Of a stretch of 58,890 nt of DNA, positions 52,196-56,823 are shown in pieces. A model generated the notes under the pieces. The model did not search any database and had not been told where the DNA came from. It saw nothing but the letters and a program-made list of their open reading frames with translations. The DNA is from a virus. Taxonomy: Duplodnaviria; Heunggongvirae; Uroviricota; Caudoviricetes. The stretch is from the IMG/VR virus record IMGVR_UViG_2526164617_000008; one strand, given 5' to 3'. A program made the position numbers and the translations under genes. Numbering within the stretch: the first letter of the stretch is position 1; the number at the start of each line of letters is the position of its first letter.

Positions 52196-52257
52196 CGCTT
52201 GCAGTAACGGCGAAAGGGGCAATGACAGCGCTGCCATGTCGACAAGAACTGGAATAG
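52196..52257 (+). pseudogene. cscK: Detached 3' tail of cscK (last about 20 codons)
   Basis: Reads (A)LAVTAKGAMTALPCRQELE-stop, continuing the frame broken at 56533 on the other strand. Confidence 0.6.
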
Positions 52258-52328
52258 TGAGAAGTAAACGGCGAAGTCGCTCTTATCTCTAAATAGGACG
52301 TGAATTTTTTAACGACAGGTAGGTAATT

Positions 52329-53576
52329 ATGGCACTGAATATTCCATTCAGAAATGCGTACTATCGTTTTGCATCCAGTTACTCATTTCTCTTTTTTATT
52401 TCCTGGTCGCTGTGGTGGTCGTTATACGCTATTTGGCTGAAAGGACATCTAGGGTTGACAGGGACGGAATTAGGTACACTTTATTCGGTCAACCAGTTTA
52501 CCAGCATTCTATTTATGATGTTCTACGGCATCGTTCAGGATAAACTCGGTCTGAAGAAACCGCTCATCTGGTGTATGAGTTTCATCCTGGTCTTGACCGG
52601 ACCGTTTATGATTTACGTTTATGAACCGTTACTGCAAAGCAATTTTTCTGTAGGTCTAATTCTGGGAGCGCTCTTTTTTGGCCTGGGGTATCTGGCGGGA
52701 TGCGGTTTGCTTGACAGCTTCACCGAAAAAATGGCGCGAAATTTTCATTTCGAATATGGAACAGCGCGCGCCTGGGGATCTTTTGGCTATGCTATTGGCG
52801 CGTTCTTTGCCGGCATATTTTTTAGTATCAGTCCCCATATCAACTTCTGGTTGGTCTCGCTATTTGGCGCTGTATTTATGATGATCAACATGTGTTTTAA
52901 AGATAAGGATCACCAGTGCGTAGCGGCGGATGCGGGAGGGGTAAAAAAAGAGGATTTTATCGCAGTTTTCAAGGATCGAAACTTCTGGGTTTTCGTCATA
53001 TTTATTGTGGGGACGTGGTCTTTCTATAACATTTTTGATCAACAACTTTTTCCTGTCTTTTATGCAGGTTTATTCGAATCACACGATGTAGGAACGCGCC
53101 TGTATGGTTATCTCAACTCATTCCAGGTGGTACTCGAAGCGCTATGCATGGCGATTATTCCTTTCTTTGTGAATCGGGTAGGGCCAAAAAATGCATTACT
53201 TATCGGTGTTGTGATTATGGCGTTGCGTATCCTTTCCTGCGCGCTGTTCGTTAACCCCTGGATTATTTCATTAGTGAAGCTGTTACATGCCATTGAGGTT
53301 CCACTTTGTGTCATATCCGTCTTCAAATACAGCGTGGCAAATTTTGATAAGCGCCTGTCGTCGACGATCTTTCTGATTGGTTTTCAAATTGCCAGTTCGC
53401 TTGGGATTGTGCTGCTTTCAACGCCGACTGGGATACTCTTTGACCACACAGGCTACCAGACAGTTTTCTTCGCAATTTCGGGTATTGTCTGCCTAATGTT
53501 GCTATTTGGCATTTTCTTCCTGAGTAAAAAACGCGAGCAAATAGTTATGGAAACGCCTGTACCTTCAGCAATATAG
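52329..53576 (+). CDS. cscB: Sucrose:H+ symporter CscB (LacY-family permease)
   Basis: 415 aa, 12 TM, MALNIPFRNAYYRFASSYSFLFFISWSLWWSLYAIWL. Confidence 0.9.
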   Translation: MALNIPFRNAYYRFASSYSFLFFISWSLWWSLYAIWLKGHLGLTGTELGTLYSVNQFTSILFMMFYGIVQDKLGLKKPLIWCMSFILVLTGPFMIYVYEPLLQSNFSVGLILGALFFGLGYLAGCGLLDSFTEKMARNFHFEYGTARAWGSFGYAIGAFFAGIFFSISPHINFWLVSLFGAVFMMINMCFKDKDHQCVAADAGGVKKEDFIAVFKDRNFWVFVIFIVGTWSFYNIFDQQLFPVFYAGLFESHDVGTRLYGYLNSFQVVLEALCMAIIPFFVNRVGPKNALLIGVVIMALRILSCALFVNPWIISLVKLLHAIEVPLCVISVFKYSVANFDKRLSSTIFLIGFQIASSLGIVLLSTPTGILFDHTGYQTVFFAISGIVCLMLLFGIFFLSKKREQIVMETPVPSAI

Positions 53577-54016
53577 ACGTAAACTTTTCCGGTTGTTGTC
53601 GATATCTCCCTATCCCTCAACCGGAAAATAATAATACTAAAGTGCTTAGCCCGGCTAATAATCACCTAATCCAAACGCCTCATTCATGTTCTGGTACAGT
53701 CGCTCAAATGTACTTCAGATGCGCGGTTCGCTGATTTCCAGGACATTGTCGTCATTCAGCGACCTGTCCCGTGTATCACGGTCCTGCGAATTCATCAAGG
53801 AATGCATTGCGGAGTGAAGTATCGAGTCACGCCATATTTCGCTATCAGGATTCTGTGTGATGGTTACATCGCCCGGCCCAGGGCTGTTTAGTCATCAGCG
53901 CTTTCTGACAGTGCTGAGATTTCAACCTGTTGCAGTAAAAATGAGTAGATATAAGGCAAGTGTGCTGCCAAACCCATCTTTTACGGGGTGAAGGTAGATT
54001 TCGTTTGAAGGGTATC

Positions 54017-54031
54017 TGGTGTCCCCTGCAG
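54017..54031. repeat. Inverted copy of the argW 3' end (candidate prophage attR core)
   Basis: tggtgtcccctgcag is the reverse complement of ctgcaggggacacca at 11079-11093. Confidence 0.6.
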
Positions 54032-54104
54032 ACATCTACTTGAGGCGGCAGGGGATTGATTGGAATGCTGTTTTTTAGATTTGAAAAATATTTTACCCGC
54101 TATT

Positions 54105-54305
54105 TTACCCATTGGCGCGGCTTAAGAGCTTATTTTTGAATTCACAATGGTCACGATATAACCATCTTGCTCGTCCGTGGATAACTTTGGCTTTAGGCAG
54201 GTCGCCGGACTTAATCCGGTCATAGATGAAGGTCTTACCGAAGCCAGTATCAGCCATGATGAATTTCAAATCAACCAGTGAATCAGGTTGTAGTTCGTGT
54301 TGCAT
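54105..54305 (-). CDS. torI: AlpA/Xis-family excisionase-like regulator (TorI-like)
   Basis: 66 aa; MQHELQPDSLVDLKFIMADTGFGKTFIYDRIKSGDLPKAKVIHGRARWLY; recalled as matching TorI of the K-12 argW prophage. Confidence 0.7.
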   Translation of the reverse strand: MQHELQPDSLVDLKFIMADTGFGKTFIYDRIKSGDLPKAKVIHGRARWLYRDHCEFKNKLLSRANG

Positions 54306-54427
54306 GAGTGCTATCTCCGAATATGGAATCGAACCTGCAAATCAGGCAATAAAAAGCCGCATTGATGCAGCAATGGTAGGTCTGGATATCTTGAGAAATG
54401 AACAGGCCTCATCGAGTGTGAGGCGGG

Positions 54428-54772: not shown

Positions 54773-55085
54773 TTCTTGTCTCCATAAAACAAAACTCGCC
54801 GTAGCGAGCTCAGATAAAAGAAATCCCCGTCAGTGCGAGGATGCTGTTCATTGCTGCTATACACTTTTTTGCTCTCAACGTAAGCGGTAGCCCATTCTGT
54901 TGGGTTGGTCAGTTGCTTTTAGGAAATGCTCTTTACCCCTTAAACGTCGGCTGAAAGAGCTAAAATCCATGCAAAAAATTTACGCAATTTTGTGTATTAT
55001 TGTGCAGTAAGTAATGAGCTATTTTCTGTGCAAAAAATGGATGATAAATTTGTCCGGGGCAGGAAAAATTTTATGGGCGCTAAAC

Positions 55086-55616
55086 ATGAAAAAAGATTCG
55101 TATCCTTATTTGATTTGCATGACAGTTTCAGGGCTGATCTTTATTTTCCTTTTCTTCTGGTGGCGGGCAGATATCTACAGGGTCACGTTTCTTAATCAGA
55201 GTATATCCCACTATTACATTCTGTTTAGCATGGGAATAGCTTTTCTGTTATCTCTGTTTTGGGTTAAGAAGGGGATAGTAAAACAAAGCGGCTGGAAGAG
55301 TCTGTCAGCATACCTTAAGGTTTATGCAGGGATATGCATATTTTCTGGATTTTTTCTGATTATACCCCTTACAACACTAACTTATTTTTTGCCTGGAGAG
55401 ACATCGTCTTATGTTGCACCGTATCGGTATACTTCCGGTAGTTCAAAAAGTTGTTCTGGAGCTGAGGTGGATGACCCCGATCTACATGAGAATATTCGCA
55501 TTTGCTATCCGTATGGCAATTATGAGTACGATAATATTATCTATGTTGAAAAGAAAATTAATACATTAGGTGCGGTAGTGACATATGCACAGACCGCGCG
55601 TGATGATACTGAATGA
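55086..55616 (+). CDS. Hypothetical membrane protein (about four TM helices plus Cys/Tyr-containing C-terminal domain)
   Basis: AT-rich ORF; start taken at MKKDSYPYLICMTVSG; ORF track begins at 55014. Confidence 0.4.
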   Translation: MKKDSYPYLICMTVSGLIFIFLFFWWRADIYRVTFLNQSISHYYILFSMGIAFLLSLFWVKKGIVKQSGWKSLSAYLKVYAGICIFSGFFLIIPLTTLTYFLPGETSSYVAPYRYTSGSSKSCSGAEVDDPDLHENIRICYPYGNYEYDNIIYVEKKINTLGAVVTYAQTARDDTE

Positions 55617-55779
55617 GATAGTATATAGCGGGCAAGTTTTAGTTAATTTATCGAGGTAATATAATTTACCTCGACTCGTTTATTCTGGTATGAATATTTC
55701 GCTTTACGATCGATTTTTATCTGATGATATCATGCGGTTTTCATATACTGACTTACTGTCTTTTGGTAATGACTCCAAC

Positions 55780-56283
55780 TTATTGATAGTGTTTTATGTT
55801 CAGATAATGCCCGATGACTTTGTCATGCAGCTCCACCGATTTTGAGAACGACAGCGACTTCCGTCCCAGCCGTGCCAGGTGCTGCCTCAGATTCAGGTTA
55901 TGCCGCTCAATTCGCTGCGTATATCGCTTGCTGATTACGTGCAGCTTTCCCTTCAGGCGGGATTCATACAGCGGCCAGCCATCCGTCATCCATATCACCA
56001 CGTCAAAGGGTGACAGCAGGCTCATAAGACGCCCCAGCGTCGCCATAGTGCGTTCACCGAATACGTGCGCAACAACCGTCTTCCGGAGACTGTCATACGC
56101 GTAAAACAGCCAGCGCTGGCGCGATTTAGCCCCGACATAGCCCCACTGTTCGTCCATTTCCGCGCAGACGATGACGTCACTGCCCGGCTGTATGCGCGAG
56201 GTTACCGACTGCGGCCTGAGTTTTTTAAGTGACGTAAAATCGTGTTGAGGCCAACGCCCATAATGCGTGCAGTTGCCCGGCAT
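55780..56283 (-). CDS. insB: IS1 InsB
   Basis: 167-aa frame. Confidence 0.85.
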
Positions 56284-56477
56284 CCAACGCCATTCATGGC
56301 CATATCAATGATTTTCTGGTGCGTACCGGGTTGAGAAGCGGTGTAAGTGAACTGCAGTTGCCATGTTTTACGGCAGTGAGAGCAGAGATAGCGCTGATGT
56401 CCGGCAGTGCTTTTGCCGTTACGCACCACCCCGTCAGTAGCTGAACAGGAGGGACAGCTGATAGAAACAGAAGCCAC
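56202..56477 (-). CDS. insA: IS1 InsA
   Basis: 91 aa. Confidence 0.85.
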
Positions 56478-56532
56478 TGGAGCACCTCAAAAACACCATC
56501 ATACACTAAATCAGTAAGTTGGCAGCATCACC

Positions 56533-56823
56533 CTGCAAGCGCTCCGCAACGTTGAGCGAGATCGATAATTCGTCGCATTTCTCTCTCATCTGTAGATAAT
56601 CCCGTAGAGGACAGACCTGTGAGTAACCCGGCAACGAACGCATCTCCCGCCCCCGTGCTATCGACACAATTCACAGACATTCCAGCAAAATGGTGAACTT
56701 GTCCTCGATAACAGACCACCACCCCTTCTGCACCTTTAGTCACCAACAGCATGGCGATCTCATACTCTTTTGCCAGGGCGCATATATCCTGATCGTTCTG
56801 TGTTTTTCCACTGATAAGTCGCC
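56533..56823 (-). pseudogene. cscK: Fructokinase CscK, middle fragment (between IS911 and IS1)
   Basis: ...LISGKTQNDQDICALAKEYEIAMLLVTKGAEG...DSTGAGDAFVAGL...AQRCGALA, PfkB-family kinase signature. Confidence 0.8.

Follow-up and report, generated by a model that had tools for sequence, protein, structure and literature searches.

How cscK came to lie in pieces on both strands of DNA crowded with insertion sequences, its 3′ end just ahead of cscB, is the question raised by this locus. The stretch analysed here, referred to as the window, is 58,890 nucleotides long (IMG/VR record IMGVR_UViG_2526164617_000008). A preliminary description had read the segment 52196-55764 as flipped, taken IS1 ends as the breakpoints, and placed cscB, attR and torI on the flipped DNA. 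Our analysis confirms a real chromosomal inversion of this 3.6-kb segment in Shigella sonnei, located between two inverted IS1 copies and fixed in the sampled S. sonnei genomes. The three features all fall within 52196-55764, and the segment carries the cscK 3′ end, cscB, attR, torI and two prophage genes (Table 1). Four independent lines of evidence uphold the inversion: the reconstruction of an intact csc locus, synteny with the intact argW prophage in the alignment to Escherichia coli CEA224S, the inverted attL and attR cores, and eight complete S. sonnei chromosomes.

Table 1. Features of the inverted segment and its surroundings (window coordinates).
Feature	Coordinates	Strand	Remarks
argW	11019..11093	+	tRNA-Arg(CCU), ARAGORN
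attL core	11079-11093		CTGCAGGGGACACCA, last 15 bases of argW; prophage reaches csc locus
Flank A	44612..49320	-	late-regulatory region of argW lambdoid prophage: porin, quuD, rusA, ybcO, ninE, ybcN
IS1 copy 4	49321..52195	+	IRL 49321, IRR 52195; insA/insB′ on + strand; split by IS21
IS21	49552..51654	+	istA, istB; in IS1 copy 4; 4-bp duplication ATAT at 49548-49551 and 51655-51658
9-bp target duplication, inner copy	52196..52204	+	CGCTTGCAG, cscK nt 854-862; abuts IRR of copy 4
cscK 3′ end	52196..52257	+	last 20 codons and stop; opposite strand from remaining cscK
cscB	52329..53576	+	sucrose permease, intact, 415 aa
attR core	54017..54031	-	15-bp copy of argW 3′ end, inverted relative to attL
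torI	54105..54305	-	excisionase / TorR inhibitor of argW prophage, 66 aa; position and length match annotated torI
Two prophage hypothetical genes	54428..55616		114 aa (- strand), 200 aa (+ strand); last of flipped segment
IS1 copy 5	55765..56532	-	768 bp, uninterrupted; IRR 55765 (inner), IRL 56532 (outer)
9-bp target duplication, outer copy	56533..56541	-	CTGCAAGCG on + strand; abuts IRL of copy 5
cscK middle fragment	56533..56823	-	nt 572-862 of 915
IS911 (IS3 family)	56824..58072	-	1249 bp; 3-bp duplication GCC at 56821-56823 and 58073-58075
cscK 5′ fragment	58073..58642	-	nt 5-574
IS4 left end	58643..58890	+	inserted at fifth base of cscK; runs off window

Both breakpoints coincide with IS1 ends, as had been proposed. 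The 9-mer CGCTTGCAG directly adjoins the last base of IS1 copy 4 (...GGAGTCATTACC), and its reverse complement CTGCAAGCG directly adjoins the last base of IS1 copy 5 (...GGCAGCATCACC). Copy 5 has the IS1 length and the IS1 terminal inverted repeats (GGTAATGACTCC... and ...GGCAGCATCACC), the called genes carry the Pfam domains Zn_ribbon_InsA, HTH_Tnp_IS1 and DDE_Tnp_IS1 of InsA and the InsB′ DDE transposase, and RefSeq labels matching E. coli DNA as an 'IS1-like element IS1A/IS1B family transposase'. The 9-bp duplication is within the 8-9 bp of IS1 and is here an inverted pair distributed over two different copies, while copy 3 is flanked by a conventional direct 8-bp repeat, CCAATTTT. In total the window holds five near-identical IS1 copies, of which copies 4 and 5 lie in opposite orientations and differ by one base, an A at 52085 private to copy 4. 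Copy 4 is split after IS1 position 541 and matches positions 1-541 and 538-768, with blastn identities to copy 5 of 100% for 49321-49551 and 99.8% for 51655-52195. The IS21 within it measures 2103 bp, against 2131 bp in S. sonnei Ss046.

The number of 9-mer occurrences in the window (3 observed against 0.88 expected) is meaningless by itself, and it is the position of the two copies that is informative. By our own arithmetic, the chance of a 9/9 match between flanks abutting IS1 is about 3e-4, given 10 IS1 flanks and hence about 90 oriented comparisons with a probability of 4^-9 each. The second pair of flanks, TACCACTTC (49312-49320) and CTGTCTTTT (55756-55764), shows no match in either orientation; that it forms no target duplication is explained by the absence of about 9 kb of the argW prophage at that joint.

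Comparison with intact E. coli indicates what the locus looked like without the rearrangement. When IS1 and one 9-mer are removed, the rebuilt cscK-cscB sequence aligns as one contiguous piece, at 99.9% identity, in 2,639 complete E. coli genomes. Aligning the junctions to an intact csc locus, a check that the preliminary description had recommended, placed the two window pieces on CEA224S with an overlap of exactly 9 bases (20001-20009 of the CEA224S locus, L019), and therefore the intact gene holds one copy of the 9-mer at this point. On the same locus the segment aligns forward (20001-23569), whereas the cscK middle piece (20009-19719) and flank A are both reversed. The 9-mer being single-copy in intact cscK, its two inverted copies represent, as had been suggested, the target duplication that an IS1 event left in the cscK 3′ end. 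The broken reading frame was also expected to resume on the other strand, and it does: ...DLAQRCGALA, on the minus strand at 56533, continues on the plus strand from 52205 as VTAKGAMTALPCRQELE-stop. The stop codon, which had been put about 70 bp before cscB, occupies 52255-52257 and lies 71 bp ahead of the cscB ATG, a spacing equal to that in intact E. coli.

The earlier account requires amendment as to cscK. The splitting of cscK by the IS1 inversion holds, but the gene is not in two pieces only, as IS911 and IS4 interrupt it too. The three pieces rejoin into a gapless open frame covering 911/915 nt with 2 amino-acid changes. In the csc arrangement to which the locus conforms, the cscKB operon is divergent from cscA, with cscR beyond, and lies beside dsdA and the argW region; the intact layout is present in E. 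coli E2865, CAU16175 and CEA224S. The csc content of the window consists of cscB and the three cscK pieces, and beyond IS4 the loci of S. sonnei continue with cscA (477 aa) and cscR (331 aa). The cscB of the window differs by one substitution, A374T, from that of Ss046 and CEA224S.

The prophage side of the segment leads to the same conclusion. In the window the attL and attR cores are inverted with respect to each other, but in intact E. coli (CEA224S) they are direct repeats. For torI, the segment identity is 99.5%. Flank A retains the ancestral orientation relative to argW and the 5′ parts of cscK, and ends 29 bp into the 3′ end of a replication protein P gene, at the joint with IS1 copy 4 where about 9 kb of the argW prophage is absent. 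A site-specific inversion by IntS/TorI is rejected: IS1 ends form both breakpoints, and the att core is reached only 1.8 kb into the segment.

A survey of related strains, also proposed beforehand, found the inverted arrangement in all eight complete S. sonnei chromosomes compared. Each of them, Ss046 included, has the same seven junctions in the same order and orientation and keeps the copy-4 SNP. Orientation was inspected directly in these 8 complete genomes, and a further 16 were grouped as 'similar' with orientation not displayed. The inversion, its breakpoints, the single-copy target and the presence of the arrangement in 8/8 complete chromosomes compared are thus direct observations. In 5,426 complete E. 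coli genomes, searched for a precursor or an intermediate, all four IS1 junctions were absent; the only matches with coverage of at least 80% had about 86% identity or were stitched together from separate segments, and are hence spurious. Among 185,579 species-representative genomes the IS1 junctions had no match; of two junction-specific ORFs, look-up of the 124-aa one was without a match and that of the 115-aa one returned only two 392-bp contigs.

How the inversion arose is a matter on which the junctions bear less directly, and here we infer a one-step rather than a two-step origin, together with an order of events. Under the replicative-transposition model IS1 yields inversions as well as deletions. 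Turlan and Chandler, as cited in PMC12428005, are reported to have described, in 1995, IS1-mediated intramolecular rearrangements and replicative IS1 transposition. The most likely source, which we favour by barely better than even chances, is a single intramolecular replicative transposition 'in trans'. The ancestor would have carried an IS1 already resident in the argW prophage, itself decayed, at a distance of 3.6 kb from cscK; read in window orientation, flank A would have been followed by IS1 (IRL to IRR), then by the segment in reverse complement, and lastly by an intact cscK. This resident IS1 would have been without a target duplication after the loss of about 9 kb of adjoining early, immunity and replication genes of the prophage. 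Its ends would then have attacked the 9-bp site CTGCAAGCG at cscK nt 854-862 on the same chromosome (duplicative inversion). Replication through IS1 would have created a second copy in inverted orientation, and the same event would have flipped the intervening DNA and left the 9-bp target as an inverted pair, inside by the IRR of the old copy and outside by the IRL of the new one. IS21 would have entered copy 4 later, because copy 5 is without it.

An inverted IS1 pair brackets a segment that is inverted with respect to an unrearranged relative, and the target repeat is inverted, inside at the IRR of copy 4 and outside at the IRL of copy 5. The product derived for one step, a / L..R / rc(T) / rc(s) / R'..L' / T / b, equals the window end for end, and the geometry agrees with the published signature of intramolecular transposition in trans (PMC4471558). 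The authors of that IS26 study judged one step likelier than insertion plus inversion (PMC4471558), and in IS1 the donor copy was retained in 210/210 intrachromosomal events (PMC12428005). What is lacking is the donor's original duplication as a second inverted pair (TACCACTTC against CTGTCTTTT), and the one-step model therefore needs an extra deletion event. Such a pair presupposes a donor that still carried its duplication, and it is equally predicted by the two-step model. Both the absent donor duplication and the 9-kb gap beside it are in keeping with an element that has a history of intramolecular events.

The strongest competitor is the route put forward in the preliminary description, to which we assign a chance approaching one in two. 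Here an IS1 from any place in the genome inserted into cscK at nt 854-862 with a direct 9-bp duplication, and RecA-dependent recombination with an inverted prophage IS1, between 768-bp copies 3.6 kb apart, then flipped the DNA between them and separated the two 9-mers. It predicts exactly the junctions observed, so that the account stands as to the junctions but not as the sole route, since the one-step event gives the same structure. The five near-identical IS1 copies would make donors and recombination partners abundant, and the direct-duplication insertion of copy 3 on the same contig makes a separate insertion into cscK entirely plausible. The one-base difference between copies 4 and 5 is easily explained by different parents, whereas under the one-step model it must be a later mutation. 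Against two steps, two independent events are needed where one suffices, and frequent recombination should give both orientations, while 8/8 complete genomes share one. The last point carries little weight, given that the strains are related and that IS21 now interrupts the homology, leaving stretches of 541 and 227 bp.

That the inversion is an assembly artefact, the true structure being cscK with a simple IS1 insertion flanked by direct repeats, was a legitimate concern and is now vanishingly improbable. The window is a whole draft contig, AKND01000037.1, spanning five near-identical IS1 copies, and short-read assemblies of relatives break exactly at these IS1 ends into 3.4-3.75-kb contigs; such assemblies cannot give the orientation of the segment, because all four IS1 junctions fit both. 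The artefact is refuted by the shared order and orientation of the eight complete chromosomes, including the finished S. sonnei Ss046 (CP000038.1, identified in PMC6562246), and by IS21 and the copy-4 SNP, which lie within 541 bp of the junction between the IRR and the cscK 3′ end and are linked to it in every complete genome. A composite transposon (IS1, cscB-torI, IS1) moved in as a unit resembles the locus outwardly, with two inverted IS1 around a 3.6-kb passenger, but merits practically no credence: it is refuted by the outer flanks, TACCACTTC and CTGCAAGCG, which form no direct duplication, and the passenger opens with sequence that exactly continues the gene interrupted at the outer flank and lies where it natively belongs, with cscK on one side and the argW prophage on the other.

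Taking the inversion with IS1 breakpoints as established, its consequences for the csc genes and the prophage can be considered. The flip removes the last 20 codons from cscK and parts cscB from the cscK promoter, decoupling the two genes. With attR inverted, IntS/TorI excision is no longer possible, and the prophage is locked in place. In its present position cscB lies directly downstream of, and co-oriented with, insA, istA, istB and insB′. At the protein level the CscB of Ss046 and that of E. coli are 100% identical, and cscA and cscR, too, are intact. From this sequence context it is conceivable, although improbable, that read-through from IS promoters might drive cscB transcription free of control by CscR, with kinase-less sucrose uptake and hydrolysis retained, in which case the S. 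sonnei csc locus would be a rewired locus and not a dead one. A promoter and terminator scan upstream of cscB gave nothing either way, with no terminator-like site between the IS genes and cscB. Failure to use sucrose is an established trait of S. sonnei.

The locus is a tidy natural case of IS1 reshaping the Shigella chromosome, in which the once-single 9-bp target now stands as an inverted pair and both dates and delimits the 3.6-kb flip. Inversions by insertion sequences that leave this signature belong to textbook knowledge; the present one, though clean, is an ordinary instance of how Shigella genomes typically decay through insertion sequences, and it leaves general understanding unchanged. 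That insertion sequences disrupt csc loci in Shigella has been published before, and the inversion adds mechanistic detail to it. The text of Stephens et al. (2024, Front Microbiol, PMC11251922) describes the csc loci of S. sonnei and other Shigella as defective, with cscA/cscR often intact and cscK/cscB interrupted by IS1, IS3 or IS4. The window represents the same IS-disrupted locus, but unlike in that description its cscB is intact and displaced, not interrupted. That text uses 'inversion' 0 times and mentions no target duplications, and our literature search for S. sonnei with cscB/cscK or IS1/inversion/target duplication returned no description of this inversion.

Among prophages, the closest comparison is with the KplE1 / CPS-53 type, which shares the argW-adjacent integrase, the far-end torI beside attR and the 15-bp att core identical to the 3′ end of argW. 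Unlike that type, the prophage in the window is a lambdoid mosaic riddled with IS1, is without about 9 kb of its early region, and has its attR inverted. Among rearrangements, the locus resembles those of IS26/Tn4401 in clinical plasmids (He et al. 2015, mBio, PMC4471558), which likewise have inverted copies around an inverted segment and mutually inverted repeats of target length, each at a different copy, with a target that is single-copy in the unrearranged relative. It differs in being chromosomal and due to IS1, with a 9-bp rather than an 8-bp duplication, in donor flanks without a second inverted pair, and in that both routes fit. Documented IS1 behaviour, namely donor retention and adjacent deletions without target duplication, fits both the 9-kb gap and the inversion (PMC12428005). 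Whereas those studies used laboratory plasmid and reporter assays (PMC12428005), the window holds a natural rearrangement carried by 8/8 complete genomes.

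A single piece of the argW prophage and csc DNA in this Shigella sonnei locus lies inverted between two IS1 elements, and a 9-bp sequence repeated in inverted orientation ties the event to the 3′ end of cscK. This flipped segment (52196-55764) carries the cscK 3′ end, cscB, attR, torI and two hypothetical prophage genes, and is bracketed by IS1 copies 4 and 5, each of which has one of the paired 9-mers directly beyond one end. By our own arithmetic for the window, about 3e-4 perfect 9-mer matches would be expected between two of the ten IS1 flanks in either orientation, and a third occurrence of the 9-mer (34186) has no relation to any IS. 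With IS1 and one 9-mer taken out, the reverse complement of 56533-56870 was joined to 52205-52700. This rebuilt junction aligned as one contiguous piece, at 99.9% identity, in 2,639 complete E. coli genomes, where the annotation reads cscK (aminoimidazole riboside kinase) followed by cscB. In E. coli CEA224S, which has an intact argW prophage and csc locus (L019), the flipped segment corresponds to 20001-23569 forward and the adjoining cscK piece to 20009-19719 reversed, with exactly nine bases shared. The 9-mer is therefore present at this point of intact cscK, as expected had the gene been the target, and the predicted reading frame is continuous: ...RCGALA is followed across the rebuilt junction by VTAKGAMTALPCRQELE and a stop codon 71 bp before cscB, the same distance as in the intact operon. 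Neither of the two outcomes that would have overturned the preliminary description, a cscK without the 9-mer here or a broken frame, was thus observed, and its observation holds.

Features of the rearranged argW-csc region, in window coordinates
Feature	Position	Details
argW	11019-11093	
IS1 copy 4	49321-52195	orientation opposite to copy 5; IRL at 49321, IRR at 52195
Inner 9-mer	52196-52204	CGCTTGCAG, directly after IRR of IS1 copy 4
IS1 copy 5	55765-56532	768 bp; IRR end GGTAATGACTCC... at 55765, IRL end ...GGCAGCATCACC at 56532
Outer 9-mer	56533-56541	reverse complement of CGCTTGCAG, directly after IRL of IS1 copy 5
IS911	56824-58072	1249 bp; 3-bp duplication GCC; 99.8% identical to annotated IS911
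cscK 5′ part	58073-58642	resumes beyond IS911
IS4	from 58643 (window ends 58890)	at fifth base of cscK

The gene order of CEA224S supports the earlier claim that this segment is flipped. On the csc side it runs cscR, cscA(-), cscK(+), cscB(+), attR, torI(-), two hypothetical genes and TraR, followed by exo, bet, gam, N, cI, cro, cII, O, P, nin and rusA, and then by quuD(+), porin(-), lysis and structural genes, intS and argW. Relative to this order, the late-regulatory block ending at 49320 (lysis, porin, quuD, rusA, ybcN), the cscK 5′ pieces and IS4 are reversed in the window, and only 52196-55764 is forward. In addition, the 3′ 15-mer of argW (CTGCAGGGGACACCA; 11079-11093, + strand) is found again between cscB and torI (54017-54031, - strand), so that the attL and attR cores, which lie 48 kb apart in the same orientation in CEA224S, are inverted here, and the prophage remnant would therefore no longer be able to excise by IntS/TorI. 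The late-regulatory block ends 29 bp into the 3′ end of the replication protein P gene of its best E. coli match, and the flipped segment ends just short of TraR. The joint with the donor IS1, copy 4 (49320/49321 and 55764/55765), has thus lost genes for early functions, immunity and replication (TraR, exo, bet, N, cI, cro, O and most of P), roughly 9 kb as judged from mosaic relatives. This loss explains why the flank pair TACCACTTC (49312-49320) and CTGTCTTTT (55756-55764) is not an inverted duplication, and is in keeping with an adjacent deletion by IS1 or with recombination of two IS1 copies in direct orientation. Among the other IS1 elements, copy 3 (43844-44611) is flanked in the usual way by an 8-bp direct repeat (CCAATTTT). 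Comparison of the flanks of copies 1 (6896-7662) and 2 (13874-14641) revealed no target duplication in direct or inverted orientation, and these copies probably mark further rearrangements near argW and intS. Copy 1 has also degenerated: its IRR end is altered and one base is deleted at position 457.

The sequence cannot decide whether the inversion arose in one step or two. We lean, if only just, towards a single intramolecular replicative transposition ‘in trans’, in which a - L..R - s - T - b would become a - L..R - rc(T) - rc(s) - R'..L' - T - b. The product equals the window end for end: the old copy has IRL as its outer end and the inner 9-mer at its IRR, and the new copy has IRR as its inner end and the outer 9-mer at its IRL. 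This preference follows from the description of the same signature for IS26 and Tn4401, where one step was considered likelier than insertion followed by inversion (PMC4471558), and from the retention of the IS1 donor copy in all 210 intrachromosomal events (PMC12428005). A 2.1-kb IS21, flanked by a 4-bp duplication (ATAT), interrupts copy 4 after IS1 position 541; under a one-step origin, IS21 must have entered after the inversion, because copy 5 lacks it, and the one base at which the two IS1 copies differ would have mutated later. The IS21 is 2103 bp, compared with 2131 bp in the finished S. sonnei genome Ss046, from which it differs by the loss of 1 bp and 27 bp (CTATGAGGAGCTGTTGTGATGCATGAA) where istA meets istB (50782/50783 and 50806/50807); this may reflect a true deletion or an error of the draft assembly. 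The two-step route of the preliminary description, IS1 insertion into cscK and then inversion by recombination with the prophage IS1, is a serious contender that we consider somewhat short of probable. Undoing the inversion does give its intermediate, namely the late-regulatory block, IS1 (IRL to IRR), the reverse complement of the segment, IS1 (IRR to IRL) and the middle piece of cscK, with CTGCAAGCG flanking the right-hand IS1 directly, but one-step transposition leads to the same final structure. The segment also has one orientation in all eight complete genomes in which it was read (CP000038.1, CP022672.1, CP104423.1, CP179952.1, CP061367.1, CP109775.1, CP049183.1 and CP026802.1; 16 further contigs grouped as ‘similar’ fall outside this count), which argues mildly against frequent recombinational flipping, although the strains are related.

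The window is a whole draft contig (AKND01000037.1 of GCA_000268005.1), and its four IS1 junctions (late block/IRL, IRR/cscK 3′ end, 55764/IRR and IRL/middle cscK piece) suit either segment orientation equally, so that draft assembly could make a plain IS1 insertion look like an inversion; this is ruled out by the eight complete chromosomes, a linked base in copy 4 and the inverted att cores within the contig. Every junction occurs in the same order and orientation in these chromosomes, including IS1/IS21 and IS21/IS1, which tie IS21 to the cscK 3′ side. Consistently, 45041-58073 is colinear with Ss046 (CP000038.1; PMC6562246) at 99.74%. Base 52085, 111 nt from the junction with the cscK 3′ end, is an A private to copy 4 and a G in copies 1, 2, 3 and 5, and the allele pair of copies 4 and 5 is identical in 8/8 complete genomes. 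In CP109775.1, a further IS3-family element has inserted within the flipped segment and separates the 114-aa gene from the 200-aa gene (L013 8719-9875). The four IS1 junctions had no match among 5,426 complete E. coli genomes, nor had the cscK 3′ junction among 185,579 species-representative genomes. For the 200-aa prophage protein encoded in the segment, the collection indexes 3,350 blocks, and the longest contig is 2-5 kb in 2,925 of them; the sampled contigs of this size have IS1 at both ends, which suggests, without proving, that the segment is widespread in S. sonnei in its IS1-bracketed form.

No alignment to cscK was obtained for the first 47 bases of the rebuilt query, since IS911 cuts the gene again at 56823/56824. 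The gene lies in three pieces within the window, with its start codon beyond the window end, and is dead three times over. Rejoined, the pieces align without gaps over 911/915 nt of the reference with an open frame and two amino-acid changes, indicating that the gene was intact until the IS elements arrived. At the IS911 end, 163 bp of cscK (58073-58235) are present in this contig, CP061367.1 and CP026802.1, but Ss046 (L016 ~13060) and five more of the complete S. sonnei genomes lack them; the strains are polymorphic for a deletion next to IS911, and the GCC duplication is lost in those without the 163 bp.

In contrast to cscK, cscB is intact, and the Ss046 CscB protein is 100% identical to that of E. 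coli. The present strain differs from both by A374T (53448-53450), and this exact protein is found in only 22 contigs, marking a small S. sonnei sub-lineage. The gene is separated from the cscK promoter and now lies downstream of the co-oriented insA, istA, istB and insB', with no promoter-like or terminator-like sites in 51500-52450; from this arrangement, read-through expression from the upstream IS genes may be possible. In an unrelated E. coli, CAU16175, IS1 has inserted independently into cscB rather than cscK (L001 6416-8437), and IS1 therefore strikes the csc operon outside Shigella too. A published study reports that csc is defective in S. sonnei and other Shigella, with cscA and cscR often intact, cscK and cscB interrupted by IS1, IS3 or IS4, and 1% of S. 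sonnei sucrose-positive (PMC11251922). The text of that study makes no mention of an inversion, and we found no other description in the literature. The inversion is thus a correct and slightly finer reading of a known degraded locus, and an event of a known kind.
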